Shown here: piece by piece, positions 1-64,000 of the stretch
How the letters are laid out: the number at the start of each line of letters is the position of its first letter
Numbering within the stretch: the first letter of the stretch is position 1
NCBI GenBank assembly: GCA_003344405.1
Contig: NOWV01000133.1
Location: forward strand, 124,001-188,000
DNA: 64,000 nucleotides
Direction of reading: 5' to 3'
Source: Trichoplax sp. H2
Taxonomy: Eukaryota
Position numbers and translations under genes: made by a program
Notes under the pieces: generated by a model
The model's database searches: none
What the model was told of the DNA's origin: nothing
What the model saw: the letters and a program-made list of their open reading frames with translations, nothing else

Positions 1-3000
1 TGAGTCACTTTTAGAGGAGTTGGATGCCGCTAAAGAGTTATCTGTACTATTCGACATTGCCGATTCACTAGGATTGGATATTAATGCAACGGATATCTCA
101 GAATTCAAGAATAAGCTTACTCAATGCGTACGTCAGTTGCAGCCTAACGAAAAACAAGTTACATATCATGATGTAAGTACTTGCTTCAATTATTTTTTCG
201 AAAAGTTTATTAACGCTAATTGATCCTTTACTGACACAAAAAATCAATTATAGATACTATATCATCTTTATACCATTTCTATTTCATTTTTATGTGTTGT
301 CACTAACCAACTTTTTGATGAGGTTTACGTCAAGATAAATCTCTCAATTTCTAAAGTCTCTAAGATTCAGTATCCCTTAAATACTCACAAGAACTTAGAT
401 GCCTTTGCTTCTAGGTTATAAAACTAGCCAACTGATTTTATTCAATTATTTACTGAGCTTATATATCTCTCGGAAGTAGCTAACATTGATGAATCGTTTT
501 GCAACAATAATTGTCAATAATAATTATCGATACTGACATCTACTGATTGATTCTATATAATTGGACCTCAGTATGTCCATTCACAGAGTCATTTCAGTAC
601 ACCTGCTATCTACTATTAGTCAGAATTCTGTTACAAGAGCTTGTACTGTATTCGATTACTATAAAAGAATTTTATTACAGTACAATAAAAAAATTTGGTG
701 TAAAATGTTATAACTCCAGTGATTCCTACTTTAAGCTATTAATTGTAATCTCCTAATATAAATGTTAAAGTCGTAAAGTTTGCTTATTTGATTCTCCACA
801 GTAGTTTGTACCGTAACAGTATTAATGATATCAAATAATATTGAGATGTTTAAAGATCTCACATAAAATATCGCATAAAGTGATTTCACTCTGTAATGGA
901 AAGAGATTTAGCTTATTTTAATTCATTACTAGTTAACACGAAACATTGTCATCTTTAACATTTAGTTATAACATAATATTATTGTCTTTAACATTAATGG
1001 ATATTATATTTATGATAGCCAATCAATAGAAAAGTAACATTCCAACTTGCCTATCTATTACAGCCTCTGGCACAAAATACAAGTAACTAGTTTTTAATAA
1101 TACTACCATTCAAAACTAGTCTTAACTAGCTGAGCAATCTCTTCAAAAAGAGTGCTAAACTTTGTCAAAATCTATCGATTATATTATATACGATACTTTA
1201 TGAAATAAGAATTGATCTAACTTTGATAAAAGTATCGCATAAAATAATCGTCTTAGATTATATAGTTTTTATAAAATAAGGCTTCTATGGCAAAATTTAA
1301 GATTAGTGAAGTAATAATTAGTTTAGAACAATAATCCAATCTAAATTGTCCTGAGCTCAAACAAAGGGAAGTCTAATCTAGGTTCATCTGTGTCGTTGTT
1401 AAATGGATTTCCTTTAGTCAAATTACGGCAACAAAGTTGTTTACAATCAGACGTGAATCATTGAACAGGATGCTTTTCCATAAATAGATCATCACTATGT
1501 TTTGCAATATAAATGAATCTGCTTTAAAATATCGCTACTCTTCTGTTAATGTTCAATATCACAAGATTCTGAGCATCTTCACAATTACAGCACTCAAGTC
1601 ACATCAACCTTGTACCATAATTAGTTGACTGGCTAATATTAGCAATCAATAATTTCTAATATGGTATTTAGCATTCACCTAATATTAGTGGCGGGTAATG
1701 AGCTAGTCACGGTAATAACTATTCTTAGAAACATAACTATATCAAAAATAGCTATCAATGCAATTGAATATAAATTCGTACTCAATCGGGTACACCTGCA
1801 TTATCAAACCGATATACAGCGTTCATGAGTAGAATCTATGGATATTCATTCTAGGATTGCTAGCATTGCCATGAAATTGATATCCTAGTTCTCAATCAAG
1901 CATCGAACTTATCATGTAGCAATAATTACTAATTTGTCGATTGTTGCTAATTATTTGAAGGAATCTGAAGAAGTGGTTTTCAATGCTTCTACATCTAATG
2001 AAACAACGTTTTATGAATTTTCATGTTGATATGTACGCATAGATAAACTATTAGTATTTTACGAAGCTTTCTTGAAATAAAGTATTGAATTTTTTACCAA
2101 TCAAATAAATTAGAAGAAAATAGCAATCACCAACAGCTTAACATTTAGTAATGCTAATCAATTAATTCACAATAGCTATAATTTAATGCAACAAGAAAAT
2201 TTAGGGCTAGTTCTTAATATAACTAAATCGTCTAACTTATTTATATGGAATGGTAATCACTAATCTTTTATCTAGCTTATTATTATAATTATAACATTTA
2301 ATATTCATTCACGATCAAAGCTTGCTATTTGATGTCCCAATTTTAATTCTCACGTAAAGTTTTTATTACTTTTCTGTAATAACTTCTTAATAACTAAATT
2401 TATGATTAATTTATGTTTAATTTTTTTACAGCAAATTAAGAAATTAAATGTTATTAGAAATGATGATGATAAAGCAAGTAAGGCGCTATCAGCTCTGCAA
2501 GCAGATATTAACGATATGGAAAAGAAATTTGATAAGTTACTTCCTTGCGGAATAAATGGGCTTAAGATGGAATGCCCGGATAAAAATGAACAAAAGGACA
2601 ATTCAAAAATATTAGACGATTTTAAATATCCTATTCTTGTTACGGGTACTACGAACTATAGTCGCTACTATGCCATCATTTTTTGCCCTTAAAATCTAAC
2701 TTTAAATGCTTAAGTAAATATAGAATACCTAAGAAAAATGTTTAATAAGATATTTATGAGAATATAAACTGATCTTGAAATAAATTCTTAGGCGAAACTA
2801 GCGCTGGAAAATCTTCATTGCTAAACTATCTGCTTGGCTTTGATTTATTACGGAATCATACACTAAGTTGTACGAATAGAATATGCGAAATAATGTACGG
2901 AGAAGAGCCAAAAATTAGCATAATAAACGTTAATGATGATAGTCAACTCTTTACTAGAAGTTGGACACTGGATGAAAAAGATATTGCTAAAAGAGAAATT

Positions 3001-6000
3001 CAATCATTGACAGCAGAAACAGGTCTTATACAGGGCTCCAACGAAAGCAAAGAAATAAAAATCGATGGTATTGCGGCAAATATATTGGTTAGGATTTATT
3101 GGCCATCAGAATTTTTAAAGGTAACCTACAAACAATTCTTACTTTCAAGTGAAATAGGATTATGATTATTGTGGGAATATTTAGCTAATAACTTGTCCAA
3201 AGACATCGAGTGATCTAATTCTGTATTCTTTAGAGAATATTATTTCGCATGGAGACTTATAATGCGGCAGAGTATATCTTATTCTGTATAAGTTTACTAA
3301 ATAATAATAAAGTTAAACCTACTGAAACTTAAGATAAAAATCTGCTTTTAGTACAATATTTAAAACGTTCATCTAAGCTAGTTTATAATAATAGAGCAGT
3401 AAAACACGCGATACTATCTCTAAACTTCTATGATTTCTATCTAAATCAAATCATCAAAGGTTCTCCTTATACGTGCTCGATGCTTACATCGAGTTAGTAA
3501 ATAATTTTCCCCGTAAATACTTGTATGATTGCAAGCATGAAAGATTGAATTATTAATTGCTTTACGCTATAGAGTCATGGGAATTGCAGTATGCTATTAT
3601 TACCTCTTTAATTCAAAAATCCGTCATTTTGCAAAATAAATATATTTTAGAGTGGCTTACAAATTGTCGACAGTCCAGGAATTGGCGAAGAAATTGAGAA
3701 TCCGAAAGCCTTGAAAAATTATATCTTTAAAGCTGTTGCCTACATTATTGTCATTAATGCTGCTAATGCTGGAGGGATTCAGGAGGAAAGGGTAAAGTAC
3801 ATGTCGTACTATATATACGTTTTGCATTGAGGGAGGCGATTTGTTTAATGGTCTAACTAATGTCTGATCACGGCTTTCTTCAACACAATTATACTTAGCT
3901 TCAATTATTACTACAACAAATATCGGGCGTACTGAGACAGAGTGGTTATTTTAATCCCTCTATGGCTCTATTCATATGCAATAAGTGGGATTCTGTAAAT
4001 TCTACTGAAAGAAAGGAGGTAAAAGCTTACAGCTTAAAAAAACTAAGAAAGTATTGGGCTGGAATAAAGGAGTCTCAAGTAATCTTCCTCTCTACCAAAG
4101 AGTTATTAACGGCTAGAGCATGTAATGAAGATGTACTAATTCCACCAGAAGCTGTACAACTATTTGAAAGGCTTAATGTCATGGTTCCACTTAGCCGTCA
4201 ACAACAGTTATTTAAAATTTATTGGTAGGTCACAAGCAAAATTAAGATTAGTGAAAACGTGCTAAGATATACCGTATAATTGTTTATCGGTACATGTTGG
4301 AATTTACAACAGTATTGCTGTATTTAAACACTTTAATATTATGTTTTCGCCTTTACTTTTAGCTCAATGGTTGCTCCCGTTGAAGGAGTGCTGGAAACGT
4401 GTAGAAGCTATCTTATGAAAGCACAATTAAAAAAGGACAATCGAAAAAAAGCTAAATTTATGCTAAAACAGTTACAAAACATTATTAAAGAGTCTTCTAA
4501 GGAATTAGCAAAGAAAAAGAATGCATTAATTAATGATAGTGTGAAAAGATATCAGGAATTTGTTCAAGGTTTGAATAATGATTCTATAGTCAATTGGTCA
4601 AAAAATGACCTTTTAGACGAAGAATTAGAAGAAAATGATTCGAAGAAATTACAAGAAAATGTTGTTAACAAAGTTACGCAACGATTAAATTGTCATCTGA
4701 AATACATTGCTACAGAAATACAAAAAGATCTTTGGGTTGTTAGAGAATTGTTACGAAAAGAATATATTACTAGGCTTAATAATGTTACTGATCAATCACA
4801 ATTTAACTTGATTGAAACTAGTGGTGTCGAATTTAGTACTCATGTTGACAATTTCTACTTAGACGAAACATTTAAATATTCTATAATATCACAATCATAT
4901 AAATTACGCGATATATGGCCTAACACGATCACGAGTAAAGGCTCTCCACTACATTATTTTGGGAAATCGCAAAATCGATTAGAGATTCAGAAGTTTAAAG
5001 AAAACAAAACTGAAATATTGCAACAGTATACACTAATGATTCTTGAATATATTGCTTCAGATAATTTTGCGGAAAAATTAATTATTAAAAAATTTTATTC
5101 CTTAATAACTGCCTTACTAGATAATGTGGAAAATAGCGTATTAGAATCTTCACAGCGTAAAATTAAATTTATCAAGAAAATTTTGGCCGATAAATCGGAT
5201 AAAGAAATTAACAGAATTTATCTACCAATTAAAGATGAAGCTAAGAAACAATTGAGAAAATTGCATAAATTTTATTTACAACATTTAAGCGAATCAGCGA
5301 TTAAATTTGAAGATCTGCAGGAATGTCATACAGAATCTGCTCCATTATCTGTCGGTTTAAAAGTAAACTTATATCGGAAGAAGCTGTGTGAAAATGATAC
5401 AGTAAATAACGTAATTATTCAAGCTCCGGTTAATGAGTCAATGCATGATATGCAAGATTTTATTAACGACTGCTATATCATCAGGTAACTCATGAATATT
5501 TTTATAACATAATAATTTTATGAACAGTAAATCTAATTTTCCTCACGTGCATTACCATACATTTATTGACGGGTGTTCAAACTACTGCTATGTTGCATTT
5601 GATATATCTTTAAATTTCTCATTATAATTAGCACACTAGAATCCAGGAATATCGCAAAATTTCTAGGTATTTGCTATGTTTCATCCCCAGAAATAACGGC
5701 TATTGGCATTTTTGAAGATTGCCATGAAACTTTATATGAGCTAATCCTATATAATCAAACTATTATTGGTGAAAATGATGCAGCTATTACTCGATTGAAT
5801 AAGATTTATTCCTTTGTTATCCAAATTATACAAGGAATTAAGTATTTACATGAGAACGACCTAATTCATGGACATTTGACAGCCGGAAATATTTTGGTAA
5901 ATTGTATAGCAAATTATAATTACAATTTTTTAAATATAGGGTATCATAGTTATTCAATATATTTGATTTGCAAATTATTTTAAAGAAAAAGCCGTCATCA

Positions 6001-6654
6001 GTTCTATAGCAAAACATATGTTATAATTAAATTTCTCTAATGAAAACAAAATTATTAATTAATTAATTATTTACGTTAGATTTATCGACGAAAAGATCAC
6101 TATAAAATAAAGCTGTGCCATGCAATAAAGCATTGCACAATCTACCCGAATGTTCAATTCGAGAAATCAATAATCCATTATTTAGGACCAGAAGTCTTAA
6201 AAAGTAATTACATGAATGTTTATTAACGTATTAGCTTAATCATAGACCTAGAAGTATTAGAATAATAGCTGCAGTGCTCTAACTCCTTATATAAACCGAA
6301 TATATTTAATAATTCTCTAATAATCAACCTATTTCTCCTCCTCCGGGCATTTCACTAAATTTAATTAATTTTATTTTAGATCACAGCTTTCAAGAAGCTT
6401 CAGATATCTACAGCTTTGCGGTGTTATTCTGGGAGATATGGTATTGGAAATTGATAGCTAATCTGTTTAACTGGAATATTTATACTGATTATGACGAAAA
6501 AAAGAAGTACTTATTTGCAGCAAGTGCATTAATTCCTGAATTTCATGAAAATATGCTGAATATATGTGTCCAATCCCTGTCTGCTAATCCTGACGATAGA
6601 CCGACTATAAATTTCTGGGAAGAAAAGCTAGATGAAGCTGCAAAGTTACACTAA
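1..6654 (+). CDS. Gene A (family P): dynamin-like GTPase fused to C-terminal pseudokinase, DSTYK-like architecture; 5' end lies outside the window
   Basis: Exons <1-172, 2432-2645, 2792-3120, 3651-3791, 3899-4224, 4363-5484, 5632-5896, 6080-6203, 6380-6654 have GT-AG boundaries and join in frame (~988 aa visible). Motifs: G1 GETSAGKS, G3 DSPG, G4 NKWD; kinase-fold segments GIKYLHENDLIHGHLTAGNIL, YLGPE, SDIYSFAVLFWEI, PDDRP. Confidence 0.9.
320..815 (+). repeat. Diverged direct duplication: gene A intron segment, second copy at ~6815-7235
   Basis: Shared words in the same order: attcagtatcccttaa, acaagaa(c/t)ttaga(t/c)gcctttg, gctaacatt, tatgtccattcacaga(g/a)tcatttcag. Confidence 0.8.
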
Positions 6655-6814
6655 TATTATGTATCATATTGTATGGGCGATTTACAGAAGAATAAATGTA
6701 ATTCAATGGCGATACATGCGTAGTAGTAGTTTATGTAATAAGGCTTAATTTTTAGAATTCTCTTTCGAGCTTTTCTTATTTTAATAAATATTTGTCACAA
6801 ACCAGTTTCGTGAC

Positions 6815-7235
6815 AAGGATAACGTAAAACAAATCTCTAAATTACGATAGTCTTCCGGAATTCAGTATCCCTTAACTACCTAACAAGAATTTAGACGCCT
6901 TTGATTCTACGTTAAAACAATTATACAATTGAGAACTGCTTTATTCAACTATCTGACGGGTTTATATACCCTTCTACAGCAGCTAACATTCACAAGTCAT
7001 CTTATAAAAATACTTGGGTGAGAACATCTACTAACTAGTTTTTCACAGTCGGACTACAATATGTCCATTCACAGAATCATTTCAGCACACATTACAGCAC
7101 AGCAATAAATTTACTGTAACACATTTATAATTAGAGTAATTCCTATTGTAAGTAACTAGTTGTAATATAATATCACTATATTATATTAACCAAATTTAGA
7201 TATCTATTTCTTCACGGTAGTTCGCACCGTGACAT
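6815..7235 (+). repeat. Second copy of the 320-815 segment, just downstream of the gene A stop
   Basis: Colinear word matches to 320-815. Confidence 0.8.
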
Positions 7236-7689
7236 GTAGCTGTAAAAATAACTTGATTAGGTTTAATTTAGTATCGTAACATATTGTAAACCTGACTTCT
7301 ATATTCAGGTTAGAACTTCAGAATATTCTATAGCATAATTTTGATAAGAAAATCACGATGTTAGATTGTAATTTATATGACATATTTAGTTAGTACAATA
7401 CTCATGCTTTAATTATGATAAAAAACTTGTAGCCAACTTTGATTACAGAGTACAGTAGAAGTAATGTTATTTAGTTATTGAATACAGTGTAAACCCAAAT
7501 ATATTGATCTGGATTCTAATTTAATATTATTAGTTTGTCTTAGTATTTTTAGGTTTATGTTATATACCGTAGATAAGTAGAATTTGTAGATTTAGTTATG
7601 CTGGGAATCTACAGTACAATTTATCTGGTCATATAAGTTCAATTGCTAGTTATATTTGGAATACTTTAGAATAATAATTTGATAGTTTG

Positions 7690-8500: not shown

Positions 8501-10545
8501 TTCTACTACTTGGAATATTCATGATCGGATTTTATCTCACGCCTAGGTCGTGTTATCTACCCTCGCTGTAGTCTTACAAATGGTATACTTTCAAATACTG
8601 ACTGCAATAAAAGCTACTACCGATATTTTTCATATTAATGCTTCGTAATGTCATACTGTTATAACAAATTTGCAATCTTTCGAAATATTATACCTGCCAT
8701 TTTACTGTATTTATATAATAATTCGGTAGATAAAGTGATCCAGGAAATAAACGAAGCTTTACAGGATATTAAAGTTTTTTGCATAATAATTCTAAGACAT
8801 TTTAAAATTATCAGCATAAAAATTCTTATGCTAACATTGAAATTAGTTATTAAACGAAATGTGCTGACCATCTACTGCAAGCTAATCATAACTTATTAAT
8901 GTACTTCATCAAGCCTAATGTACTCTATCTTAGAAACCTTCTGATTTAGCTTTACTAAAAATGCTAGCAATAAATTGTTTTTAATAAATCATGAAAGCTT
9001 TAATCAATTTCCAGATTCTCGAAACGAAATTTTAATCTCAATTCATACTCACAATTAATAAGGTATTTCAAATAGCCTTAGTTTCCATTTTTAAAAATAG
9101 TCTTTTAAATCGTAGTGATATGCTATCGCCATGTTAAAATAGCAATTTATATTCGAACTGTATATTATAAATGTAGAACGAATCTGCCCAATGCAGGCAA
9201 TCGTATACGATATGTAAAAGCTAAAACAACCTATAAACTTCGATCGAAGGTAGCTCTTGGGATTCATTACGAAATACGCAGTAAATGATACTGTGCAAGT
9301 ATGAACTATTAGAATACTCGACATCAGGATAATCGCTTTATGCAGCGATTTAATTTGTAAAACACTTTAACTTATCGTAATCCATTTCCGCTGAGCAAAA
9401 TATATACAGAAAACTGAATACATTAGTAAGCTTACTCGATGGAGCGATTATTGGCTCCGCTAGTTAACAATATTCATTATTTAAATATAAATTACGTCTT
9501 TCAACAGTATAGAGAACATAACCTATGAAAAGCACTAAAACAGAACAGTAATCCTAAATCAAAACCCAGATCAAAATCAAAGGTCCGATCAAAATGTATA
9601 GTTTCATATTCATTTTTGTTTTTGCAAAGTAACAGAACATCTACTGTATTTTTTAATTACAGTTAACAGCAAATTTTATCGCAATTAAAGCACCAATATT
9701 ATAATAACTGAATGCATCGGTTAAAATTGTAATCTTACAATTTAGGATACCATTTAATAAAATATCTTACCTGATATTATTAAATTCTAACATGAATAAG
9801 GTAGCCAGATTCACTATGTGCACATATACAAAGTAAATTATAGTGTAATTAGAATATACTGTAACTATATTTTACTCTTAAATATAGACATGTTGTATTT
9901 ATCTTATATTTAGACATATCTACAGTCCGCTTACTTCACATTCATATATAGGCTACTTTACAGTATTTAGTTATTACAGTCCTCGCTGTTTGCTACAATC
10001 GTCAGCTATGTTGTAACCTGTTATGGTATATGTTGTATCTAATTCTACAATCCTATTCTCTGCTTGTGCTCTATCTTTAAAACTATAAATACCGCCGTTT
10101 TCCACCTCAGAAATCGTTAGTTTCCTGGTTAGTCTTCACACGTTACTCACGACAGCTTGCACGCTGGTCTACCGTAACTACCTCACTGTACTTACTTTAC
10201 TACTTAAAATAAAGTATATTTTTTATACAACTTTTGGTGTACTAATTGTAAATGGCAACTAAATCTCAATCCTCCAAGATATCGAACCCTCCATCACATT
10301 TCATTAGTTGAATATTATAGTAATTAAAAACTTATCAGGACGGCAAATGAGTTTGAGGCTACTAATAATACAATATTAGTAGATTTATTAACTATTGTAC
10401 TCGAAAAATTTCGCTACGTTTAAAAGGTTGATATGAGGCTAGCAGTTGTCTTAATTATCCTATCCCAATTTTTGAAATGAACATAACATTTGGCAGTATA
10501 TCTTTGTCTTACACTTTTAACTCAGTACTTCTTATTCTATATTAG

Positions 10546-10811
10546 ATCGTAACTATGTGAAAGCTTCAGATATTTACAGCTTCGCAATGTTATTTTGGGA
10601 AATTTGGCATTGGAAATCGATAACAGATTTGTTTGACAGGAATATTAATACTGATCAGGGTCCAAAAACAGACGATTTATTTACAACAAATACACTTACC
10701 CCGAAGATTCCTGAAAACTTATATACTACTTGCTTTAATTCCATAGCGACCAATCCTAAAGAAAGACCGGATATTCCATTTTGGCATGATATACTTTCAA
10801 GTGCTAAATAG
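10546..10811 (+). pseudogene. Isolated copy of the family P terminal (kinase C-lobe) exon; paralog remnant or alternative last exon of gene A
   Basis: Intact acceptor (tattag|at) in the same phase as gene A exon 6380; open frame KASDIYSFAMLFWEIWHWK...NPKERPDIPFWHDILSSAK*. No other family P exons seen between 6654 and 10546. Confidence 0.75.
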
Positions 10812-13400: not shown

Positions 13401-16400
13401 TCAAGTATTTTTGGTATAACTTGCGCGGACATTATCTATCTCTACCGTAAGTTTCTCAATATCTTCAATCTTACGAACTACAGAATCATTTGATTGAGGA
13501 TTTCTTTTAGTAACTTCCATAGCGAAATCTTCCTTTTTCTCTAAACCCTGAAGTATTTGCTTTTGTTTGCTCTTAATTGACTTTCTAATTGGCTCAGCAT
13601 AAGCCCAAGCCATTTTATTTTCATCTACGTCGGCTAATTCTGTAACAAGTTTAGGCGTCCAATGTTGTAATATATGTAAAACTTTCAGCTTTTGTCTTTT
13701 AATTCTATTTTTAGACCATATCACGTCAGATATTTTAGCAATAATTGCAGAAATTCCAGCAGAGGTTAACCCTACAAGCGAGAAAATGTTTCGCCATGAT
13801 CTCTTTTCTCTAAATGGCGAAGAAGTCATATGGAAATCATAATCATCGCTCAATTCGTGGTCATCCAATTTGAATACATTATCGAAGTTCTTCAATTCCC
13901 GTAAAATGTAATCGTAATATAAATTCATACATTCTCTTATTTTTTCAGAAAAGTACTTAAGTGGGATACATTCTTTTTCCCAGAACGTTAATAGACGCTC
14001 AAATCGATCCAAAAATAAATTGTAGGCAACGTCTGTGATATTAGTAACTCGTCCCCGAATTGGAATATCTTCTAGTTTCCAAGATATCATGCCAGTTTTA
14101 AATTTATCGCTTTGTAAAAAGTCGTTTAAAGAATTGGCAATTTCTTCGACTCCTACATCAAATGTTTTATCAATATCTATGTGGAAATCTTGATTTTCTA
14201 TGACCTTCTTAGCTGATTGAACACTATTTTTTATCGCACGTAAGTGAGTCATCCGATCAGCAGTATTTAAGGAATTTAATTTAGCCATCGTTTTGTAACC
14301 TTTCTTGACCTCTTTCAGAATCGAATTCATCTCACTTATAGATATACAACAAGTAAAAAACACCTATTAATAGGATACTTACTATATCCATTTCGATATT
14401 ATACATGTTCTTTGAGAATAGCTTTATTGACATATGCTGAGTACGATTAATTCAAAAATATTAACTTGCATAGTTATTTGATTAAGTAGGAAATACATAG
14501 AGTATTTAATTAAAAAACGCCCGATACCTGCTATGAATCAATGTTATCTTCTTCAGACTGTCTTCTATTAGTTGAGAAATAAGTGAATAAACTGCTACCA
14601 AATCGTCCGATATGTATCCTGCTTCAAAATGACTTTGTGTCTCCTCAGTTGATAAAAATAATAGTTGTGAATCGCGAAATCCAGGCCAAATTGTTTTCAG
14701 CTTATCTTTAGTGTCTTTTTCAACCGTACTTTTTTCTGCATCTGGGACCTCATCCCATTTATTGCAGATAAAAATAGCTGATTCCGGAGAGAATTTGTTG
14801 AATTTTTCCTTCTCTACATTTCTCATTGTGCTAGTAAGTCTCACAAGCTGTGAATCAGCGAAAACATCTGTTATCTTCGATAGATACCGGAACTTAGATT
14901 ATAATCACTTCGTATTAAATCTGATTATTTTAAAAGCTTACTCGATCTGTATGTATACCACCAGCATTTGCAGAATTGATGACATAAATAATTGAGCATG
15001 CCTTGGGTAAGTACTTTTCGATTTGCTGATTTGCTAAAGATGTTTCCCCAATTCCTGGGCTATCTGCTACGAATATACCGGCCTAATTCAATTTAGAAAG
15101 AATTCCGTATAAACTATTTCTGTCCATGTTTGCTAAATCACAATAAAGGGTATTGGTAACTGTAATAATAACCAGCTAATACCATCTAATAGATTAATAT
15201 TTTTTGAATGTCTAGAAAATAAACTAAACAGTATTATAGTTGCATAATTAAACGTTCCATTAGTCAAATGTTGAATTTTTTCTCATTTGCCTTACAGTAC
15301 TCCGATCACTGTTCTTATCAAATTCAATCGCACTAGACAAACCTTTAAAAAATTAAAATTCCAATAAATTTCGAGCTTTCCAGTTGTTAATTGTGTATCA
15401 TCCGAATCCTCATCAGCAGATTCATCATCTGTAGAGACAGATAATTCGGGTATGTCTTCAATGCCTGTATTGACTTAATCTAGTAGAGAAATCCTTGATA
15501 TTTACCTGCTATATTTGTGAAAAAATTTTTCTTGCCTATCGATCTCATGGCTTCTTTAATCTTTGATTTCATATCGTGAGCATCTTTAATTTGAGTTATT
15601 TGTTCTAATTGTTCCAACTTTTTATTAACTGGATTCCAAGCAAATGGCTTTATGCAAGCATCTGTCGAATAATATAATTCGCATATACATGTTGTTGAAT
15701 GCAAATGACTGGCAGTTAGCAAGGATTCGCCTAGGATTAAATTAATAAAGCTGCTCTTTCCAGCGCTTACTTCTCCTAAATTCATATACAAGTAAAATGT
15801 TAGCTATCATCAAAACCGTAATGTATTTGAGAGAGAATCCACTATGCAGGATAAAATTAAGCAACTATTATTCAATCGACTTGACGCAACTAAACTGACA
15901 GAAGATAAAGTTTATCGTTAAATGGTACAGCTTAAATAGTTTACATGCTAAATCATATACAGTTAGCTACATTTTTGCATTGCAGTATTATTTAATATTT
16001 TATCGAAAAAGGATATTATTAACTATGGTCCATTCTAAATACTGCGTAGGTTACATTTGTTAGTGGAGACCAGGTAAACATAAAAAAACGGAATAAATCG
16101 TTACGCTTAAGCACATAATTGGCCACTTTAGCAAGTATTGCAAACTGTATGCATATTGTTTCTAAATGCGAATTACATATAATAAATGCCTGAATAATGT
16201 GTTGTTGCGGATTATTAGCAATAAATGACTACTATATTGTTATAGTAAAAGATTAGCTATTTTTGATAGACCTGCAACAAGTATTGGATATTCCATGTCG
16301 CGTAATTTGCTAATATATTTGCCTATGTTTTGCAGATAGTGGCGATGCTCATCATTTGCATTGACTATATTAGCAATCTCTGGTTCTAATTTTTGAAAGA

Positions 16401-21916: not shown

Positions 21917-24900
21917 TTAAATGTCGCTGTCATAAGTTTTCAGGACATCGTTAATTCTTGTTCTAAGTTTATTAATGATATCTATCTTTGCTACTGCAAT
22001 ATCGCTAGTTATAGAGAAATCATTTTCAAAAATTCGAATAATAAGCTCTTCATTTGCTTCTAAATGCTGAAATATCTGTTTTCGCATATCCTCATTAGCC
22101 TTCCTAATTGGTGTTGTATAAGCCTGTGCAATTTCAGACGCTTTGTTTTCGTTCGCTAATTCTGAAACAACACTAGCTGCATTTCCTTTCATGACTTGTA
22201 AAATTGTCTTTCTTTGTCTGTCGATGCTTGCTGCTATTAAAACACCATCTATGATAGCTATACTAATCAAGGAAATAATAAGGCCAATGCCGCCTGTTAC
22301 GCCACCGATTACTCCTCCAACAGCTGCAGTAGCAATGCCTTCAGCCATAGAGGCCCCAGCTACTGCAGCTGCAATCCCACTGCCAACAGTACCAGTGATA
22401 ATACCAGCTCCAGCGTAAAAGGATTGCCATGATTTTTTTCTTGTAGCCACAGTGAAATCCAACTGTGGTTTAATTTCCTCAAATGATGAAATCATACTCA
22501 AGTCTGGTAAACTATCAATACTGGAAGTATCTAATTGTAATGAATTTTCTAAGTCCTCCATTGCCTGCAAAATATCACTGTACTGCGCCCTTAAAGATCG
22601 CTGTACATTATCATAAAATAGCCTAAGTTCGCCATTCTGTTTTTCCCACATCATTAATAACCGAATAAATCGATCACAAAACAAACCCCGGGCAACTTTT
22701 TTAATATCGACGATTTTTTCTCGAATTGGAATATCCTCTAATTTCCAGGATGACATACCTTCTTTAAAATCTTCGGTTTTTAAGAACTGAAGCAAAGAAA
22801 TACTTATGTGTGCAGTACCGTGATTGATAATTTTTTCAGGCTCGCTATGAAAATTTTGACTTGCCATGATGCTTTTAGCTTCGCTGTTCCTATACTTTAA
22901 AAGGTGTAGGTAACTTGATTTGCCATCATTGTGCATGAAAGAGCGTGTATCAAATAAACGGTATCGATTAGCCATAACCCCTAATAATGAATGAAACCAG
23001 CTGCGTACGGTATGTGTATATGTAATAAACGAAAGAAAACCGAATGTTAAGGTATAATCTACTACATCAATTTTAATAAGCTACAAAATGTTAATGCTCA
23101 ATTTACTACATTAATTTTAATACGATCCGTTTCGAAAGCAAGGTATATTTTGTAATGTACTCAATACTAATTTGAACTAAAATTAGCATCTTAGTGAATA
23201 TGGTCAGTGATACAATTAAGAAACACAACACACCTGCTATAGTTTACTATGGCCCCCTTCAAGCTGTCTTCTAGTAGTTGGCCTAGAAGGGAGTAAACTG
23301 CTTTCAAATCATTTGATACAAAGTTAGCTTTAAGGTGACTGCGTGCATTCTCAGTTGATAAGGTAATTAGCTGAGAATCGCGAAAATTGGGCCAAATTAG
23401 CGCTAGCTTTTCTTTAATTTTATTTTTAACGGTACTCCTCTCAGCCTTTGGAATAGTATCCCATTTATTACAGATAAAAATAGCTGATTCTGCAGAGAAT
23501 CGCTTTAATTTTTCTTTCTCTAAATTTTGTTCTTCTGTTATAAGTCGCACCAGCTGTCGAGTAGAAAGTGGTTCATTATTTTAGAAAGAAAATTTAGACT
23601 ATTTTTCGTATCTTATACGATTATTAAACACTTACTCGATCTTCTTGTATGCCGCCAGCATTTGCAGCATTAATAATGTAAATAATTGAACATGCATTGG
23701 GCAAATAATTTACTATTTGTTTTGTTGCTAAACATGTTTCGCCAATTCCAGGGCTATCTACCAAAAAAATACCGTCCTAATTTCAATTTGAAAAGAATCT
23801 TACTTCAATTATTTTTGAAAACATTGGCTTGAATTTTGCATTCAATGTAATCTACTAACACCAACAATAGTCAGCTAAATCCATTTAATAAAGCAATTTT
23901 TGTTAAACAGCCAGATGGCAAAAATGTTTCGTCAATGAAAAAACTGATTTTTCTTATTTGCCTTACGATATTTCAGTTAATCGATTAATTCAATTCTATT
24001 CTACTAGCCGAACCTTCAAAAGTGGGAAATCGCTATAAATTTCAACCTTTCCGCATGTTAATTCTAAATCATCAGAATCACTGCGATCGATACAAATACC
24101 ATCTACTGAGGTATTCGATAGGTTTTGTTCTTCTTCGTTCCAATTATCTTCAACTAAGTTAGAAGTTGAACTCCGCCATTTTACTACGAAATCAGTAAAG
24201 ATGTTTTTGCTTGATACCGAATTCATGCTGCTTTTGATCTTTGCTGCAATATTAGAAATATTCTCGATAGGTATCACTTGAGACTCCTCCAACTTTTTCT
24301 TACTTGAATCCCAAGTAAATTGCTTAAAAACAGAATCTCTAGAACTACGTAATTCACATATACATGTTGTTGTGTGCAAATGACCAACAGGTAGCACCGA
24401 TTCGTTCAAGAGTAAATTAATAAAGCTACTTTTTCCAGCACTTACTTCTCCTAACATGATAACCAGGGAGAAATATTGACTATTATTATAATAATACACA
24501 ATTCTAAATCGTTATTGACTCTAAAAGCAATTCTATTAGCATAAAGATTATATTTCTCGAACCTGTAACTAAGATTGGACATTCCATGTTGCGTAAATGT
24601 TTAATGCATTTTTGGATATTTTCTAAGTAATGTTGATCGAAAGCTTTGACTATATCAACAAGTTCTGGCTCTAATTCTTGCAGGATAAACTGGTTTGCAC
24701 TTTCCAATAAATCGATAATTCGCATCTTTGCTTCCCTAAATTTAGCCACTGCACCCTTGAACCTCTTGATGAGCTACAATTATTAGGGAAATTTGACATT
24801 AAAGTATAAGATGTTATTTGTAGTGCACTGTAAAGTGTCAGCTTAGGTTGTACATACTCAGTGGCAATAATATCTTTCTTTAAATTATATAACATATAAT

Positions 24901-27000: not shown

Positions 27001-28649
27001 AATATCTTGCTGTTCTAATGTTCGTATCGCGTTGATGGAGGCGTGCAGCATTGGATAATAATTTCTTTTACCTAATTAGGCATTATTTTCTTCGATCATA
27101 GCGCCATAACAAATGATGTTGCTAATTAAACAATTGCTATATTGTTTTTTGATTTCATTTATAGTAGTCCTACTAGTTTCGTCTAGGAGCATCACTTCTT
27201 AATTACGCGATTTTACAGAGTACAATGTTATGTATATAGATGACTATGATAATCACCCTAAATAACATGAAAACTGTTGTTGGTTGTAGCAGAATGAATT
27301 CTGCAGTAATTGCTATTCTCGATCCTTCGGAATCATAATATCAGATTAGAATATGTTGTGTAGGCGAAGTCTCTGAACTCGCGCTATAAGCAGTTTTTCG
27401 ATTTCTAAAGTAATCAAAGGATAACACTAGCCAAAAAGATCTCTTTCTGAGTTTATTAAGAGAGTAGAGGTCTAGGGGGATTTCAAGATGCTGTAACCAC
27501 AATAACTTGAAATAGTATTATGCTTGCAACGCGATGAAAATTGATAGACCAAGTTCGCTACATTTGAATTTGCCTAGAATAAGTATGAGGCCGAAATAAC
27601 GGGTTAACTTCAATCAAAGCTAACAGTCTAGCTGGGATATTGAGTATTAATTTTAGTTAGTTGCAATGAATTTTGAACATAGTATATGATGGAGCATTTT
27701 AGATAGAGGAGAGATCTCCTCTATCTCAATTTATAAAGGCTACTGTAGATTCTAACAAACTAAGCGCTCTTTAAAATGTCCAAAGGCAGTGCACATATTA
27801 AGATTGAATATCAGCATGATTTTTTAAATGGATGGTAACATGTTAAGGTAGAATGTGAACTTTAAATATGTTTTACCGTGGTAATCAAGATATAACGCGA
27901 CGTAGCAATAATAAGGTATAACGCAGTTTTAAGTTATATCAAGTTTGTCAGCTAGATTCTAAAATATTAGATGTAACTGTTGTGACTGCGATATAAATTT
28001 AAAGATGGCTTTGGTAAAAAAACTAATTAATTTAACAATGTGACATTGTAATGTGTATTACTTCCAACCCTACAGTATCTAGTTACACAAGGAGATTTAG
28101 TTTTCTACGTAGCGGTGGTTAAAAATAATTTATTACTTGAAATATTTCGTTGAATTTTACAGTAGTAGAACTAAAGATAATGCAAATACGCACATAATTA
28201 GCTCAAAGCTATCGGCCCCTCTCCCACTCTAAGGAGTGGGCATTTTAGACCTTTCTAGGAAGGATTATTGATAAACATATTTACCCAATCCCTATTTCAG
28301 TCTATTCAAGTAATATCTTATTTTAACTTCCAATACTACTCCTTATTCTAATTAACACTTAATATGGCTCTTGCAAGTGCGAGACCCCAAGCTACGTATG
28401 ATTGCCATCCCTCACTTTGGGTCAATCATATGTCAAGTACTGAGACGTGCAACACTTAATAAGGGTGCCTCTAGCACCGCTAATCTACTATCTTATTTAC
28501 GCGGGGGCTCAGCTTAATCTAGTTTTCCTACTGATATTTAGCAGGAACTCGAAGCTTTGACATGCTATCTTGAAATACTTCATCACTGTACAGTACATAC
28601 AGACTTTAATTAATGTATGAAATCAGCTAATTTTTAATCATAACCCTAG

Positions 28650-28822
28650 CTGAGTCACTCCTGGCCGAACTAGAAGTTACTGAGGACATCAGTGAAGTTT
28701 ACGATACTGCAGATCGATTAAAATTAGACGTCGATGCAGATAATATCTCATCCTTAAAGGTTCAGATTATGCAGACTATCCTTAAACTACTGACTATTGA
28801 TAGCCAAATTACATATCAAGAT
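28650..28822 (+). pseudogene. psiP: remnant N-terminal exon of a family P gene
   Basis: Translates ESLLAELEVTEDISEVYDTADRLKLDVDADNISSLKVQI...ITYQD, homologous to the first visible exons of A, E and H. Acceptor is intact, donor reads ATAGAT instead of GT, and no downstream exons remain. Confidence 0.85.
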
Positions 28823-29563
28823 ATAGATAATTACTGCCTGATTAATTGTCTTTTACAGTATTTTGTAACGATCATTAATAATTAATAATTTCATCAATTA
28901 ATAAATCAATAACATAAGATAATCGCGTCTTAGTACCACTTTATTTTCATTTAAATCGATCATTGCTAGTAGATCATATTCAATTATGTTGCATAATGTT
29001 ATCGTATAAGTGATGCATTCTGTTAAGATAAAATTTAACATGTTATAATGTATATCCAATATGCTAATCCTGTATAGTACATTACTTTTGATATAGCATG
29101 CCGTGTGTAAAGAGTTCGATAGAGTAATCTCAATGTAACATTAATGAATGCATGAAATCAACACCGATACTATCCTGTATGGCCGTTTATGAAAATTGAG
29201 TAAATTATCAATAAAGTGACCAGTAGTTAGCTTCTAACGATAAATAAAACATCAAATATTTACGTGGTAAACACTGAGCTTATATTTTATATAATACGAT
29301 CAATCACGCAAAACTAAACCTATACAAGAAATGATCTTAAACAAAGAAATAGTCACCTTAATATTATCATTCTGACACTAATCCGACTGCCCAAAGTATA
29401 ATTATAATTTACGGAAATCGGAGTATAGTTTTACAGAAATTCCACTCAATAATTACCTTAGTATTTAAAAGAAGTTTCTTTCGATACTACCGCAAATATC
29501 TATCTTATCACTAGTGTAGATTTCAAAGAAGTAGATCGCTCTAGATAAATGGTATACTTAATT

Positions 29564-30981
29564 CTATATTTCGTCGTTATAACTTTTTAATAGCAGTTTG
29601 GTTTGTAAGAGTGTAATCATATCGAGAAACTCGATCAGTGAGAACTTCGTTTGCCTCTAAATGATGACCCATCTATCTTTGCATTTTCTCAATGGACTGC
29701 CGAATTGGCATGATATATCCTCCACAATTTTTCATAGCTATACCTTCATTGGCTAATTCTAAAATAATTTTAGGAGCATTTTTTACCAATGAAAGAAAAA
29801 TCCGATTTCTCTGCCCAGTAAAATTTGTTGACAGTAGTGTACCTGTTGCTGCAACTAAGCCAACTAAGGAAATAACAAATCCGATGCCAGCTATTATAGT
29901 ACCATCAATTATTCCTCCAGTAACAAGGGCATGAGCTCCTTCAGCTATAGAACTCTCAGTTAGAGCAAATGCAATACCACCGGTAACAGTTCTCGCCACA
30001 ACATTAAACCAAAAAGCAATCTTTAGAATAATGTAGTTCACATATACATGTGGTTATATACAAATGAACAACCGGCAGCACTAATTCGTTTAAGATTAAA
30101 TTAACGATGCTAATTTTTCCAGAACTTATTTCTCCTAAGACGTACAGAAGAAAATATTAACTGTTACTACATCTACAAAAGAATCTAATTAGAGACAAGC
30201 ATGTAAATGCACAGGATGCGTTTCAATGGTTATTAGCTTAATAATTCAGTATTAAGTATATTTTTTGCACCTGCCACTAGGATTTGATATTCCATATTGC
30301 ATAAATATTGAATATGCTCTTTGATACTTTCTAAATACTGTTCATCGAAACGTTCGACTATGTCAATAAGTTCTGGTTCTAATTTTTGAAGGACAAGCTG
30401 ACTTGTCCTTTCTAACAATCTAATTGTTTCTAATTTTACTTTCTCAAATTTAGCAATAACTTCTTTGATTCCTTAAGCAAGCTATAGTCGTTAGGGAAAT
30501 CAGATATTACAGCATAATTTGACGAGCGTATTGCACAATGCATGTTAAATCAATTTATATAAACTTTGGTAAAAATAAAATTTTTCTTTAACTATTAAAA
30601 TTACAGATTATTTAAAGAGATGTTGGTAATTAATTAATAAGTAGAGATGATTTACATCAATTTATATCGTCATAAATAATTTCAGCTCCTATTTTTATAC
30701 ACTTTCAAATAAAACTTTACTATTTACTTCAATAAATTTACGTAATTCTAGAATCAAATATTAACAAGAGTAAAAGATTGGAAAGAATTTTTATAGCACT
30801 TGCAGAAGAATGTTTATAATTTGTAATTGTATGATCCCTTAGAAGCAAACTAATACGTTCTTTAAAATCGTCCACGGATTTTAATCCCTTTGTATTGATG
30901 TTGTACTTCCTACTATTAGCCATAGCAGCTTTGAAGTCATTTATTTTTAAAGATCTCATCATGAGTTTTGATACCAGCCAT
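29564..30981 (-). pseudogene. psiD: family Z pseudogene with large internal deletion
   Basis: Exon 1 (30981-30804) is 178 nt vs 177 in paralogs (frameshift) with a GC donor. Exon 2 (30481-30271) has TAA at codon 3. Exon 3 from 30134 has a degenerate P-loop GEISSGKI and joins directly (~30015) to the glycine-zipper part of exon 6; the G3 and G4 exons are missing. Confidence 0.9.
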
Positions 30982-32450: not shown

Positions 32451-35235
32451 AATAAAAAAAATTGATTTTACTATTTTAGCACGTTTATTTACCATGGATG
32501 GAAACTTACAGTCAAGAGTGATTAAAAGATCACTTCATTTATTAATTCAATTAAACTATCATTCTCATTTAATTAATAATCGTACCATACCTTTAAATTT
32601 GTTATGAATGATGAAATATCCTAATTTACCTTAATCCAGCCTTAACACGAGCCACTCTTTACTACGATGGTAGCAATTACATGGGAAACGACTAGGGATG
32701 CTGATGAAATTATCGTTATCACCGATCTATTCACTTTGAGCATCGATGGAGACGATAATTGCCCTTGGGCAATATTTATTCTATTTGCTGTCATAATGAT
32801 ATACATCATACAGTGTACGACACTTGCAGATACGGTAACTTATCATATAGCGTATTTTTCTATTTCGCATTGCATTCGCCAATTCTAAACTTTACTGTAT
32901 TATACTAAAGAGTACAATCATTTGCGAATATCAAACCATCTCGACACGCATTATAGTTAATCCTGCTGTAGTGTTACTTAGTAAATTAGTTCCATTCCAA
33001 AAGGCTTCATAATACCGCTGATTTCAACCCCTAACTTGTTGCACGTATTGTAAAAATACGAAAGCTCAAAAAATAGAAATGGCAATTCTATTCACTTAAA
33101 ATGTTAATTTCATTTAACAATAGCGCGGTAATAAGTAAAGTATCATGTGGTGATCACATTTATTTTCGATACTATTTATGGCCTTCTCGATAAGAAATCA
33201 TTAGTATTCATCTTATTATTATTGTTTTCTATATATTGGTTATATTCATTAAAATTAAATTAGTCCAACTTAAATGTATGCATAGGGACGGAAGTATCCA
33301 GAAAATTGCTATCAAAAGTATTAATATTGGTTGCTAAAATGGAGAGCACAGGTACTGTTGCATTTCTAAAGATTTAATTTATAATCTTTTGGCAACATAT
33401 TTATAAAAAAGAGGATACAGATAGTTCATAAATTGCTCTTTGATACTGGAAAAAGGGTAAAGTAGTAATACCGATTCACTGCTAGTACCATAAGCTGCTG
33501 CTCTAGATGCTCTTAAATTGCTCTTCGTAGAAACTGTTATACAGATTAAATTTTCAGCCTAATGCTACTTTGATCTTATCGCAAATACTAACCGATTACT
33601 ATCACTACTTGTTTATACAAAAAATTACTATATTATCAGTACATTCATGTAAAGTTGTACGAGAGAGACATTTTAGTAAATAATAAGCATATAGGTATAG
33701 AATCCAATACTAAATATAGCCAAGAATCAAAATTGAAAGGTTGTGAGAGAATAGTCCAAGCTGTGCTTTAGATTGTGAGACGATACTAGTGTCTCCTATA
33801 TTTGTAGATGATATTTTAAGGCACGTACTGGATCTATCCTACTGCAATGCTTGCTTGTATTGCAACACTGATATCTTAATAGATTCTATTGGGTTATTTG
33901 GAATTTGAAAGATTTACTGTCGCGATTTCATTAAAAGTACTTGCTATAACATTTTTGAGACACTATTACAACATAAAAATTTACTAAATTAGCTCTGTAG
34001 CGTTCAAAATTATTTTGATTACCTACACAAGTAGACATAGAATAAATAATACTACTTCATGATATCATTTATGAATAGATAAAGGTCAGAAATCCTATAT
34101 TTTGATATTATCTAGTATTGAATGTTTTTTAAATGTCAAACCCACTGTGAATGCGAGGATAGTGCATATGATAAATGCAAAAGTAACTTCTCAAAAAGGC
34201 AAAAAAGAAACTTAGACTAAAAGCTTATTCTGAGATGCGAATACAGCAAACTTTAATAAAGACTAATATAACTTTATGCTGCTATAATAATTTCATTAGT
34301 TATATAAGAATAAAATATAGTATATAAGATAACAGGCAATTTTAAGGAAGGTTAATTTTAAAATTTTCCCTTACAGCCATTATTGCATAAAGCTGTATTG
34401 TTTTTCCAGTTTCAGATTTACGCTTACCGATCGTAGTTGCATTTGTACCATACTAGACTCTGTAGTTGATAATTGTAGATAAAACGCCCTTATAGCTAGA
34501 TTAGGATTACACTATTAATTTAGTGACATTAAGTAATTAAGGGCAGTTTGCAAAATGACAGATTTCGCATACGGTCTCGTTCATATTAAAGGAATAGTAA
34601 TACTCTTCAAAAATTAATATCAGTAGTGCATGTTAAGTAGCTGTGAAGTTATGCAGATATAAAATGCTCCGTATATTCAGTTGTAAGTAATTCAGTTTTG
34701 TATTTTATTTTTTGCTTATTAGATTGATGGAGACATTATCAACGTGTCTCCTTCTGATTTATACGCATATTGCACTCATTGCTCGCTGTATCTTCGTGTA
34801 TTTATTGATTCTTATTAGTTTAATAGGCATTTTCTTATAAATTACGTAAGTTCAACGTAATGACACCGCAGTTGTAGTAGAAAAGATCATTTTATTATTT
34901 CTCTTTAAATCCCTAAAATACGTTAGGAAATCTACAATCTTCTACTTATGGTTTATTCCAAACTTTAATAAATTACCATAAATTTCGTTACCGGTATAGA
35001 TGTTATTATAATTAATTAATAGTATTAGAAATGTAGTAAAATTGGATCCTAAGCTTTAATCAGGTACTGTTGCGATTATGACTTGGTAAATTTTTATGCA
35101 TGATTAATTGATTTAAAATTATTCAAATAGTCAACATTCGTATGGTGTGTTATTCGGTTTTACACGATATATTCGTAAATCTCGATCGTACAATAAAAAA
35201 GGAAGATTCTAAGTTTCCTCTATCTGATCTAATAG

Positions 35236-47500: not shown

Positions 47501-48285
47501 CCAACAGGTAACAATGATTCGCCTAAGATCAAATTAATCAGGGTACTTTTTCCTGCACTTACTTCTCCTATAATTATAACCAGATAAAATAGTCACTATC
47601 ATCTTGTCGTTTACATTATATTTTTAATCAGAAGTTTAGTAAATATACATTATGTTACCGCATGCAATATAAACACGAAATCAGTAGATATTAATACCAA
47701 AGACCAATGTTTGAAAGCAGAAAAGATTACTATTCGAACGAACCTGCGATTAAAATCGGACATTCTACGCTACGCAAACGGCTAATGTACTTATTCATAT
47801 TTTCTAAATATTGTTCATCATAAATTTCGACAATGTCAACCAATTCTGGCTCTAATCCTTGAAAGATTGATTTGTTCACTCCTTCTAATAAACTAATTAA
47901 TTCCTTTTTATTTTCCGCAAATTTTCTGAAGGCGTTTTCAATCCTTTGAGCTGACTGCAGTTATTAAAAAAGCAAGTTGATAGTAGGTAACGTATGTATC
48001 ATACACTAATCAGAATAGCCTATTAGTTACAGTACATCGATAATTTTATTCAATTGCATAGACTAGAACGGTTAAAATAGAACTGACCAAAAAATTGACA
48101 GCACTTACGCAGGAGCGATTATAATTTTCAATTGTTTCGTTTCTTCGAAATAAATGTAATCGTTCTTTAAAATTTTCGATTGTTTTTAATCCACTAGCGT
48201 CAATTTTACACCTTTCGCAGAGATTCATGGCAGTTTTGAAGCTTTGTATTTCGTCGATTTCATTTTCTTTTGGGATATAATCCAT
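44538..48285 (-). CDS. Gene F (family Z): dynamin-like GTPase with glycine-zipper hairpin, ~793 aa
   Basis: Exons 48285-48109, 47954-47744, 47567-47128, 46383-46243, 46159-45840, 45630-44538 are in frame. GEVSAGKST, DSPG, NKWD. Confidence 0.92.
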
Positions 48286-54300: not shown

Positions 54301-55020
54301 TATCGTGTACATAAACCATTTAAAGTTATTTGAATTTCAATAGTGGATAAATAGTACGCATAGAATATTTGTCAAACCTGCGACTAAGATCGGGCATTCC
54401 ATACAATGTAACTGCTTAATATGCTTATTCATATTATCTAGATATTGTTCGTCGAAAGTTTTAACTATTTCCACAAGCTCTGGTTCCAACTCCAGGAAAA
54501 TAAACTGACTTGCTCTTTGTAATAAGTCGATGATTTGAATTCTTGTTTCCTTAAATTTATCGATAGCACTTTTGATCCTTTGCGATGACTACAATAGTTA
54601 AAAGAAAATTGAGATGGAACTCTTGAGGCTTTATCTACGCATGAAACATTATGGTTACGTTGAGATAAGTTTGGTGTATGATTAATTAAATAAATTAAGT
54701 AGTATTTCAAACATAATACCACTACATGTAATTCACAACGGACGATCGCGCCACCGGAAGCATCAAAAACTGTTATCGAATTTTATTGAGCTAAATTGAA
54801 AGGTTTAAAATTGTCATTTTCACCAAAAATTTGCAATATTTACCGCAGAGCGTTGATAATTTTCGATGGTTTCATTCCTTCGAAGTAAATCTAGCCGTTC
54901 TTTAAAATCTTGCACAGTTTTTAACCCTTTGGTACTGATACCATACTTTTTACATACATTTCTTCCAGCTTTTAAGCTTTGTATTTCATCGACCTCATTT
55001 TGAGTTATTATGTATCCCAT
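51396..55020 (-). CDS. Gene G (family Z): dynamin-like GTPase with glycine-zipper hairpin, ~777 aa
   Basis: Exons 55020-54844, 54588-54378, 54235-53802, 53237-53097, 53015-52696, 52446-51396 are in frame. GEVSAGKS, DSPG, NKWD. Confidence 0.92.
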
Positions 55021-63978: not shown

Positions 63979-64000
63979 GTAACCTTTTAATTAATGCATA

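Follow-up and report, generated by a model that had tools for sequence, protein, structure and literature searches.

Much is known about pseudokinases and about dynamin-like GTPases. Phosphotransfer by a protein kinase requires a Lys, a Glu, an Asp, an Asn and a further Asp, and the pseudokinases MLKL and, in plants, ZED1 and RKS1 are used as switches or decoys. In the literature that we searched, we did not find a description of a GTPase of the bacterial dynamin-like protein (BDLP) type that carries a kinase or pseudokinase domain. Here we report on gene A, which encodes such a protein on the plus strand of a 64,000-nucleotide stretch of the genome of Trichoplax sp. H2 (GenBank assembly GCA_003344405.1, contig NOWV01000133.1, positions 124,001 to 188,000 of the forward strand). 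This stretch, called the window below, is AT-rich (about 30% GC) and intron-bearing; its long open pieces translate into dynamin-type P-loops, helical regions and kinase-like segments, and its genes are placozoan, judged by the database matches of two of them, paralogs H and E, to Trichoplax gene models. We propose that gene A encodes a predicted pseudokinase, maintained by selection on a BDLP-type GTPase, and that it belongs to a large family in which kinase domains have been silenced several times independently.

Results

The kinase-like domain forms the C terminus of the gene A protein (window positions 5300 to 6654, plus strand) and is spread over four of the nine exons. Alignment of the protein with three paralogs, namely, E and H from the same window and P0003, places a Gln in all four at the position of the beta3 Lys of the VAIK motif. 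The Glu of helix alphaC is replaced by Asp in A and E and by Asn in H and P0003. The catalytic Asp of the HRD motif is lost, the motif reading HGH in A and HAH in E, H and P0003, and the Asp of DFG has become His (HAI in A, HAT in E and H, HLM in P0003). The GxGxxG loop is degraded to L-S-x-G-L-K, in which the middle Gly alone remains and a Lys occupies the Phe position. Residues with a structural role are retained; these are the HRD His, the catalytic-loop Asn (LT..N in all four proteins), the APE Glu paired with the alphaH-alphaI Arg, and the alphaF Asp.

The residue equivalences are backed by two kinds of alignment. Aligned by phmmer with FGFR4 and the insulin receptor kinase, P0001, the Trichoplax adhaerens model of paralog H, has VIIQ opposite VAVK, Asn opposite the alphaC Glu, HAH opposite HRD or HRN, and Asn opposite the catalytic-loop Asn; the insulin receptor alignment also sets KLCHAT against KIGDFG, with the His at the position of the Asp. 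A MAFFT alignment of 87 kinase segments of the family gives the same columns. An earlier reading of this DNA from its letters and open reading frames (the original prediction) had listed these degenerate motifs for A, E and H, and in gene A all of them lie where it had put them. It had also located the domain at 5340 to 6654 in a preserved reading frame. The motifs are there and the frame is preserved, but the frame runs over four exons, with three introns inside the stretch.

Single exons of gene A match the Pfam family PK_Tyr_Ser-Thr with Expect values (E) of 8.9e-8 (32.2 bits, cut-off 23.1) and 1.8e-5, and P0001 matches kinases of the PDB with E down to 9e-11 (phmmer). The structure was modeled for paralog H, not for A, using AlphaFold2 with a 65-sequence family alignment. 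The model has a mean predicted local distance difference test score of 81.3 and a predicted template modeling (TM) score of 0.74; residues 720 to 1004 mostly score about 90, and the only low-confidence regions are loops and residues 537 to 599, a hydrophobic segment of the stalk. It contains a complete set of kinase strands and helices arranged in two lobes. Foldseek searches of the PDB matched its C terminus to the kinase domains of JAK, ACK1 and RET with target-normalized TM scores of 0.64 to 0.74 (0.70 to 0.74 for JAK2, JAK3 and ACK1). The alignments and the model together indicate a fold of the protein kinase superfamily, and canonical phosphotransfer is predicted to be impossible for the gene A domain. 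The kinase profile alignment and the structure prediction by which the original prediction proposed to check itself both agree with its central claim of a kinase fold with a retained scaffold but without the canonical Lys, Glu, Asp and Asp, as judged by phmmer, Pfam and the paralog H model.

The domain is conserved rather than decaying, and selection holds it as tightly as the GTPase. We compared A and E by the Nei-Gojobori method on a codon alignment (one surplus codon at the end of an exon in the E model is immaterial). Over the 282 codons of the kinase-like domain, identity is 0.59, with a nonsynonymous rate (dN) of 0.281, a synonymous rate (dS) of 1.05 and a dN/dS of 0.27; the GTPase has the same identity of 0.59, with a dN of 0.287, a dS of 1.82 and a dN/dS of 0.16. 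The stalk (identity 0.40, dN/dS 0.43) and the N-terminal region (identity 0.37, dN/dS 0.31) are less similar. Neutrality of the kinase-like domain is excluded already by the raw proportions of nonsynonymous (pN, 0.235) and synonymous (pS, 0.564) differences. Among A, E, H and P0003, which are 54 to 61% identical overall, 107 of 282 ungapped columns (38%) of the kinase-like domain are invariant, compared with 108 of 258 (42%) in the GTPase, 66 of 308 in the stalk and 16 of 118 in the N-terminal region. The invariant columns of the kinase-like domain include the replacement residues themselves (GLKV, IIQ, LIH.HLT..N and KLCH). Conservation had been part of the original prediction, which named a dN/dS near 1 as the result that would speak against it; the value of 0.27 for A and E, an identity equal to that of the GTPase and the similar shares of invariant columns all uphold that part.

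Gene A is transcribed and correctly spliced, including the exons with the altered catalytic loop and DFG motif. Its splice sites were first read from the sequence and then checked against contigs of public sequencing runs. Contigs of 3078 nucleotides (nt; run X15) and 3018 nt (run X17), which come from two studies, contain all eight GT..AG joints of the gene, among them those around the HGH and HAI exons; the joints 5484-5632 and 5896-6080, which flank exon 7, are seen in RNA contigs of both studies. The RNA label of X15 and X17 is a guess; because their contigs lack every intron of gene A, they can hardly be genomic DNA. Runs X19 and X20, recorded as RNA-seq, yielded partial contigs with three of the joints. 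After joining, the nine exons give an open frame of 988 codons that ends with a stop codon at 6652 to 6654 on the plus strand, and the transcript continues for about 150 nt ahead of position 1. The RNA contigs show six strain differences within the exons, four of them synonymous, which are too few to use. With its kinase fold, missing catalytic residues, purifying selection and expression, the domain has the properties that define a pseudokinase.

The N-terminal two thirds of the gene A product is a BDLP-type dynamin-like GTPase in which G1, G3 and G4 are intact. The intactness of these three elements had been part of the original prediction, and the corresponding motifs GETSAGKS, DSPG and NKWD occur alike in A, E and H. 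The Foldseek search with the paralog H model returned Nostoc BDLP (2j69) first, with an E of 2.4e-15 over 732 aligned columns and a stalk that superposes, and further matches were SynDLP, IniA and the Campylobacter dynamin-like protein (DLP). In this model the G domain is followed by a helical neck and trunk like those of BDLP. By language-model features, the clusters nearest to residues 1 to 715 are bacterial dynamin-family proteins and mitofusin. On the grounds of the Foldseek matches, the protein is a dynamin-like GTPase of the BDLP/mitofusin class with a kinase-fold domain added at its C terminus.

Gene A differs from its paralogs in the stalk. At 4931 to 4969 it lacks about 21 hydrophobic residues (LTSPVW.AP..IA...) that are present in the stalks of E (near 38690 to 38790), H (near 63390 to 63490) and P0003, a segment that presumably sits where the paddle of BDLP lies. 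A search of gene A for a hydrophobic paddle or hairpin found no 19-residue window above a Kyte-Doolittle value of 1.6, and gene A may therefore be a soluble variant.

Gene A belongs to a large animal family. A profile of four full-length proteins, searched against 1.84 billion representative sequences, gave 65,083 matches at an E of 0.001 or lower, of which most are ordinary kinases; tightening the limit to 1e-10 leaves 2,520 proteins, and to 1e-30, 169. At the head of the list stand family members of about 1000 residues that align end to end in the same domain order, with E from 1e-60 to 1e-190. Named members come from cephalopods, bivalves, gastropods, hemichordates, amphioxus, stony corals, an octocoral, a nemertean and the sponge Oscarella, with large lineage-specific expansions in amphioxus (very many copies), corals and bivalves. 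Such expansions are typical of innate-immunity families, and the pattern suggests a role of this kind. The public gene models carry automatic Pfam labels; in the literature searched, we found no description of the family, of its pseudokinase members or of the Trichoplax gene identifiers.

To compare catalytic residues we used 87 two-domain sequences, which are A and E together with the 85 sequences, chosen from 155 proteins, that match both the GTPase and the kinase profiles; the truncated E models P0002 and P0004, the bacterial proteins P0006 and P0007 and proteins with multiple kinase repeats were left out. The canonical combination K/E/D/N/D is present in 43 of the 87, and 44 are noncanonical. 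The four placozoan rows read Q, D or N, H, N, H. A clade of molluscs and cephalopods has R or K, E, E, T, G (HME or HPE in the catalytic loop and TGA for DFG), and other clades carry further combinations. On a FastTree phylogeny of the part before the kinase domain (85 rows, the canonical P0053 and P0120 being dropped for their short N termini), at least five changes between the canonical and noncanonical states are needed. Among the 76 rows whose G motifs are ungapped, 70 have G1, G3 and G4 intact, and these divide equally between canonical and noncanonical kinase domains (35 each); the 11 further rows show only alignment gaps in these motifs. The state of the GTPase motifs does not track the state of the kinase in this family.

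The mollusc and cephalopod clade (P0054, P0045, P0027, P0022, P0030, P0005, P0008 and others) has its own conserved motifs, LVHMELS.DTV and KLTGACLPR, and retains the alphaC Glu. From its residues we classify it as a second, independent type of putative pseudokinase within the family. P0106, from the bivalve Sinanodonta woodiana, has the Gln at beta3, HGH and KLCH, as the placozoan proteins do, and it falls among canonical relatives both in the N-terminal tree and in a kinase tree computed without the motif columns (FastTree). An approximately unbiased (AU) test on 30 rows did not reject a single clade of P0106 and the placozoan proteins (p 0.113). A separate group of proteins (P0034, P0065, P0079, P0097 and others) is 1300 to 2900 residues long, and in each of them the kinase profile of the family matches 4 to 10 kinase-like stretches in tandem.

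The window holds further members of both GTPase types (Table 1). Besides A, the plus strand carries two genes with the order GTPase, stalk and kinase-like domain (E and H) and one lone exon, and the minus strand carries four GTPase-only paralogs. Paralog H is cut by the window end just past VIIQVP (63905 to 63922); its motifs are VIIQ, an Asn in alphaC, HAH and HAT. P0002, one of the matches of E, is annotated in Trichoplax sp. H2 as 'Bacterial dynamin-like protein'. At 39640 to 39735 the public E models P0002 and P0004 splice out the part of the exon that encodes the catalytic loop, so that KKIYFM is joined to IIFRED. We read E with a donor after 39732, by analogy with gene A. Since RNA contigs of gene A contain the whole of the homologous exon, the public models of E may be wrongly spliced; otherwise, E may exist in a second form.

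The lone exon is closest to P0003 (67% identity). Neither tblastn nor a motif scan found upstream exons near it, and it is probably a gene remnant. RNA coverage over it is low or absent. Between gene A and this exon, the segments 6607 to 7340 and 9543 to 10276 are covered by contigs at very high depth in all four runs: the depth per bin is about 17 to 250 there and 0 to about 30 over gene A. Variant letters and loose contig ends are numerous in these segments, which suggests a repeat or else an unrelated transcript with high expression. The GTPase-only paralogs are interspersed with the kinase-type genes and have a stalk with a long hydrophobic region rich in Gly, Ala and Ile, without a kinase domain. 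Two isolated pieces, one resembling the N-terminal exon of the kinase-type genes (28646 to 28825, plus strand) and one resembling the Gly-rich hydrophobic region of the GTPase-only type (29673 to 30053, minus strand), are likely remnants of further copies.

Table 1. Positions in the window of gene A, its kinase-like motifs and the related genes
Feature	Position	Strand	Content	Evidence
Gene A exon 1 (in window)	1-172	+	Frame open	172 joined to 2432 via GT..AG in RNA contigs
Gene A exon 2	2432-2645	+	N-terminal helical region; ends in first base of G1 Gly codon	RNA joints, translation
Gene A exon 3	2792-3120	+	Start of GTPase domain; P-loop GETSAGKS ends at 2814	Pfam Dynamin_N, E 1.8e-13; RNA joints
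Gene A exon 4	3651-3791	+	G3 DSPG at 3669-3680	RNA joints, translation
Gene A exon 5	3899-4224	+	G4 NKWD at 3980-3991	RNA joints, translation
Gene A exon 6	4363-5484	+	Helical stalk, then kinase-like N-lobe from about 5300	RNA joints, translation
Gene A exon 7	5632-5896	+	Hinge to catalytic loop	Pfam PK_Tyr_Ser-Thr, E 8.9e-8
Gene A exon 8	6080-6203	+	DFG and APE positions	RNA joints, translation
Gene A exon 9	6380-6654	+	C-lobe helices alphaF to alphaI	Pfam PK_Tyr_Ser-Thr, E 1.8e-5; RNA joints
Gene A Gly-loop remnant	5342-5374	+	PLSVGLKVNLY	
Gene A beta3	5411-5422	+	VIIQ	
Gene A alphaC	5450-5482	+	MQDFINDCYII; Asp at Glu position	
Gene A catalytic loop	5861-5896	+	LIHGHLTAGNIL; His in place of catalytic Asp, Asn retained	
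Gene A DFG position	6110-6127	+	KLCHAI	
Gene A APE position	6179-6199	+	YLGPEVL	
Gene A alphaF	6400-6441	+	SDIYSFAVLFWEIW	
Gene A alphaH-alphaI	6592-6603	+	DDRP	
Lone kinase-like last exon	10545-10805	+	DIYSFA...KERPD	Pfam, E 2e-4; tblastn; motif scan
GTPase-only paralogs	13401-15803, 21917-24511, 44538-47592, 51396-54371	-	GEVSAGKS, NKWD	
Paralog E	35142-40539	+	Same architecture as gene A	Matches P0002, P0004 (TRIADDRAFT_54951)
Paralog E kinase-like exons (approximate)	39100-39267, 39468-39732, 39964-40090, 40265-40539	+	AIIQ, HAH, KLCHAT	
Paralog H	59860-64000	+	TRIADDRAFT_54954 (P0001), Trichoplax adhaerens	tblastn, 88-100% identity per piece; motif scan

Discussion

Why would a GTPase keep a kinase domain that has given up its catalytic residues? 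The family offers a natural experiment. On a constant GTPase chassis, roughly half of the members have a kinase that stayed canonical, and silencing took place at least five times, each event leaving a conserved replacement motif of its own. The GTPase motifs are kept in both groups, whereas kinase catalysis was lost on five or more occasions, and this suggests that the lasting role of the kinase fold in the family is structural or regulatory. We hypothesize, with moderate confidence, that the domain works without catalysis, as a regulatory or partner-binding module of a membrane-remodeling GTPase. By holding or releasing the stalk, or by recruiting a partner, the kinase-like domain would set the place and time of GTP-driven assembly on membranes.

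Several points weigh against this hypothesis. The inactivity of the domain is a prediction from its sequence, and some kinases without canonical residues remain active, WNK and CASK among them. All four paralogs share the Lys of the Gly-loop (GLKV), which occupies the place of the Phe in GxGxFG. On any reading of the domain, this Lys may come close enough to a nucleotide to stand in for the missing beta3 Lys; the WNK lysine lies one residue further on. Since dS between A and E is close to saturation and the genome is AT-rich, the dN/dS ratios are rough. Gene A is without the hydrophobic segment of its paralogs, and its relation to the membrane may differ from theirs. Finally, the invariant His residues at the catalytic-loop and DFG positions and the Cys next to the second would fit a new ligand or metal site as well.

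This last point leads to another explanation, that the domain has been repurposed and that the two His and the preceding Cys form a metal or ligand center or the active site of a new chemistry, perhaps helped by the Gly-loop Lys; the domain would then act as a sensor or an enzyme. H.H, C-H and this Lys have remained invariant in the four placozoan paralogs despite their overall identity of 54 to 61%, which speaks for this explanation, but the nucleotide-binding apparatus (Gly-loop, Lys and Glu) is degraded overall, and we regard repurposing as unlikely. P0106 bears on the same idea. It shares the Gln, HGH and KLCH with the placozoan proteins and yet groups with canonical relatives in the trees, which would make it a second origin of the same replacement; the AU test result for one clade (p 0.113) leaves this second origin unestablished. 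The fuller version, in which a His/His/Cys center, perhaps with the Gly-loop Lys, gates a dynamin-like membrane GTPase and arose twice, in placozoans and in a bivalve, appears to us doubtful to the same degree.

An integrated decoy is a further possibility. The pseudokinase would mimic a host kinase that is targeted by effectors of pathogens or symbionts, and binding or modification of this bait would free an immune, membrane-attacking GTPase. A bait of this kind, by analogy with ZED1 and RKS1 of plants, was the second role put forward in the original prediction, next to an allosteric switch that would control GTPase assembly. The tandem arrays of divergent paralogs, with three kinase-type and four GTPase-only genes within 64 kb, and the lineage-specific expansions in amphioxus, corals and bivalves fit such a system. 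A bait surface, however, is expected to evolve fast, whereas the kinase-like domain is, along with the GTPase, the best conserved part of the protein; we also saw no effector, infection-response or interaction evidence, and we hold a decoy function to be improbable, on a par with repurposing. Least of all do we believe in a decaying relic of a once-active kinase carried neutrally behind a functional GTPase, which would account for the joint loss of several catalytic residues and the repeated loss of kinase catalysis in the family but is contradicted by a reading frame that stays open across all four exons of both A and E, by correct splicing, by a pN (0.235) far below pS (0.564) at an identity equal to that of the GTPase, by the 38% of columns invariant across four paralogs and by a fold predicted with confidence for paralog H.

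A noncatalytic module on a membrane-remodeling GTPase, the reading that we prefer, can be set beside several known systems. The GTPase half has its closest counterparts in BDLP from Nostoc punctiforme (2j68 and 2j69), SynDLP (7zw6), IniA (6j72), the Campylobacter DLP (5oxf) and the mitofusin class, which share with the gene A family a GTPase with motifs G1 to G4 and a long helical neck and trunk. The bacterial DLPs have no kinase-fold domain, whereas the placozoan proteins carry about 290 extra residues at the C terminus. Compared with BDLP, gene A has also lost the hydrophobic segment of the stalk, and E, H and P0003 retain one.

A GTPase and a kinase fold are combined in one chain, possibly with cross-regulation between them, in the ROCO proteins of the LRRK2 type. 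The GTPase of gene A is of the Dynamin_N/BDLP type and not Roc-COR, and its kinase fold is without catalytic residues. Dynamin_N and MMR_HSR1 are reported on the GTPase exons, and neither Roc nor COR is among the Pfam families reported for the scanned exons or recorded for the public models; we therefore rejected membership of gene A in the ROCO family.

DSTYK, the human disease gene product to which the original prediction had contrasted the domain, has a similar length (about 930 residues) and a C-terminal kinase domain that resembles tyrosine kinase-like kinases. The chordate DSTYK cluster is the third nearest by language-model features of the whole protein (score 0.92, 215 of 256 features), and NCBI names many family members 'DSTYK-like'. 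Unlike the gene A family, the cluster has no Dynamin_N Pfam hit, and DSTYK is reported to be an active kinase, whereas the placozoan domains lack the canonical catalytic residues. DSTYK is absent from the neighbors of residues 1 to 715 in the language-model query, which is evidence neither for nor against a relationship. Vertebrate DSTYK was not among the best 120 of 334 matches of a profile built from 12 canonical members, all of which were invertebrate family members or unnamed, and DSTYK was not among the 60 PDB chains listed for an active-looking family member. The relationship to DSTYK is a lead only, drawn from database names and language-model similarity. DSTYK has been reported to phosphorylate STING, and the passages of PMC9573974 consulted do not describe its N-terminal region. 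If DSTYK were a true member in which the opposite half has been silenced, the family would explain this uncharacterized region.

The kinase-like domain can be compared with MLKL, ZED1 and RKS1. They too have a kinase fold without catalytic residues that is nevertheless kept under selection. Their sequence relation to the gene A domain is limited to the kinase fold, and the partner of the domain here is a dynamin-like GTPase rather than a four-helix bundle or a nucleotide-binding leucine-rich repeat receptor. A better contrast than DSTYK is provided by the family itself, where 43 of 87 relatives keep all five catalytic residues, K/E/D/N/D, and look active, whereas the placozoan proteins have Q, D or N, H, N and H on the same chassis.

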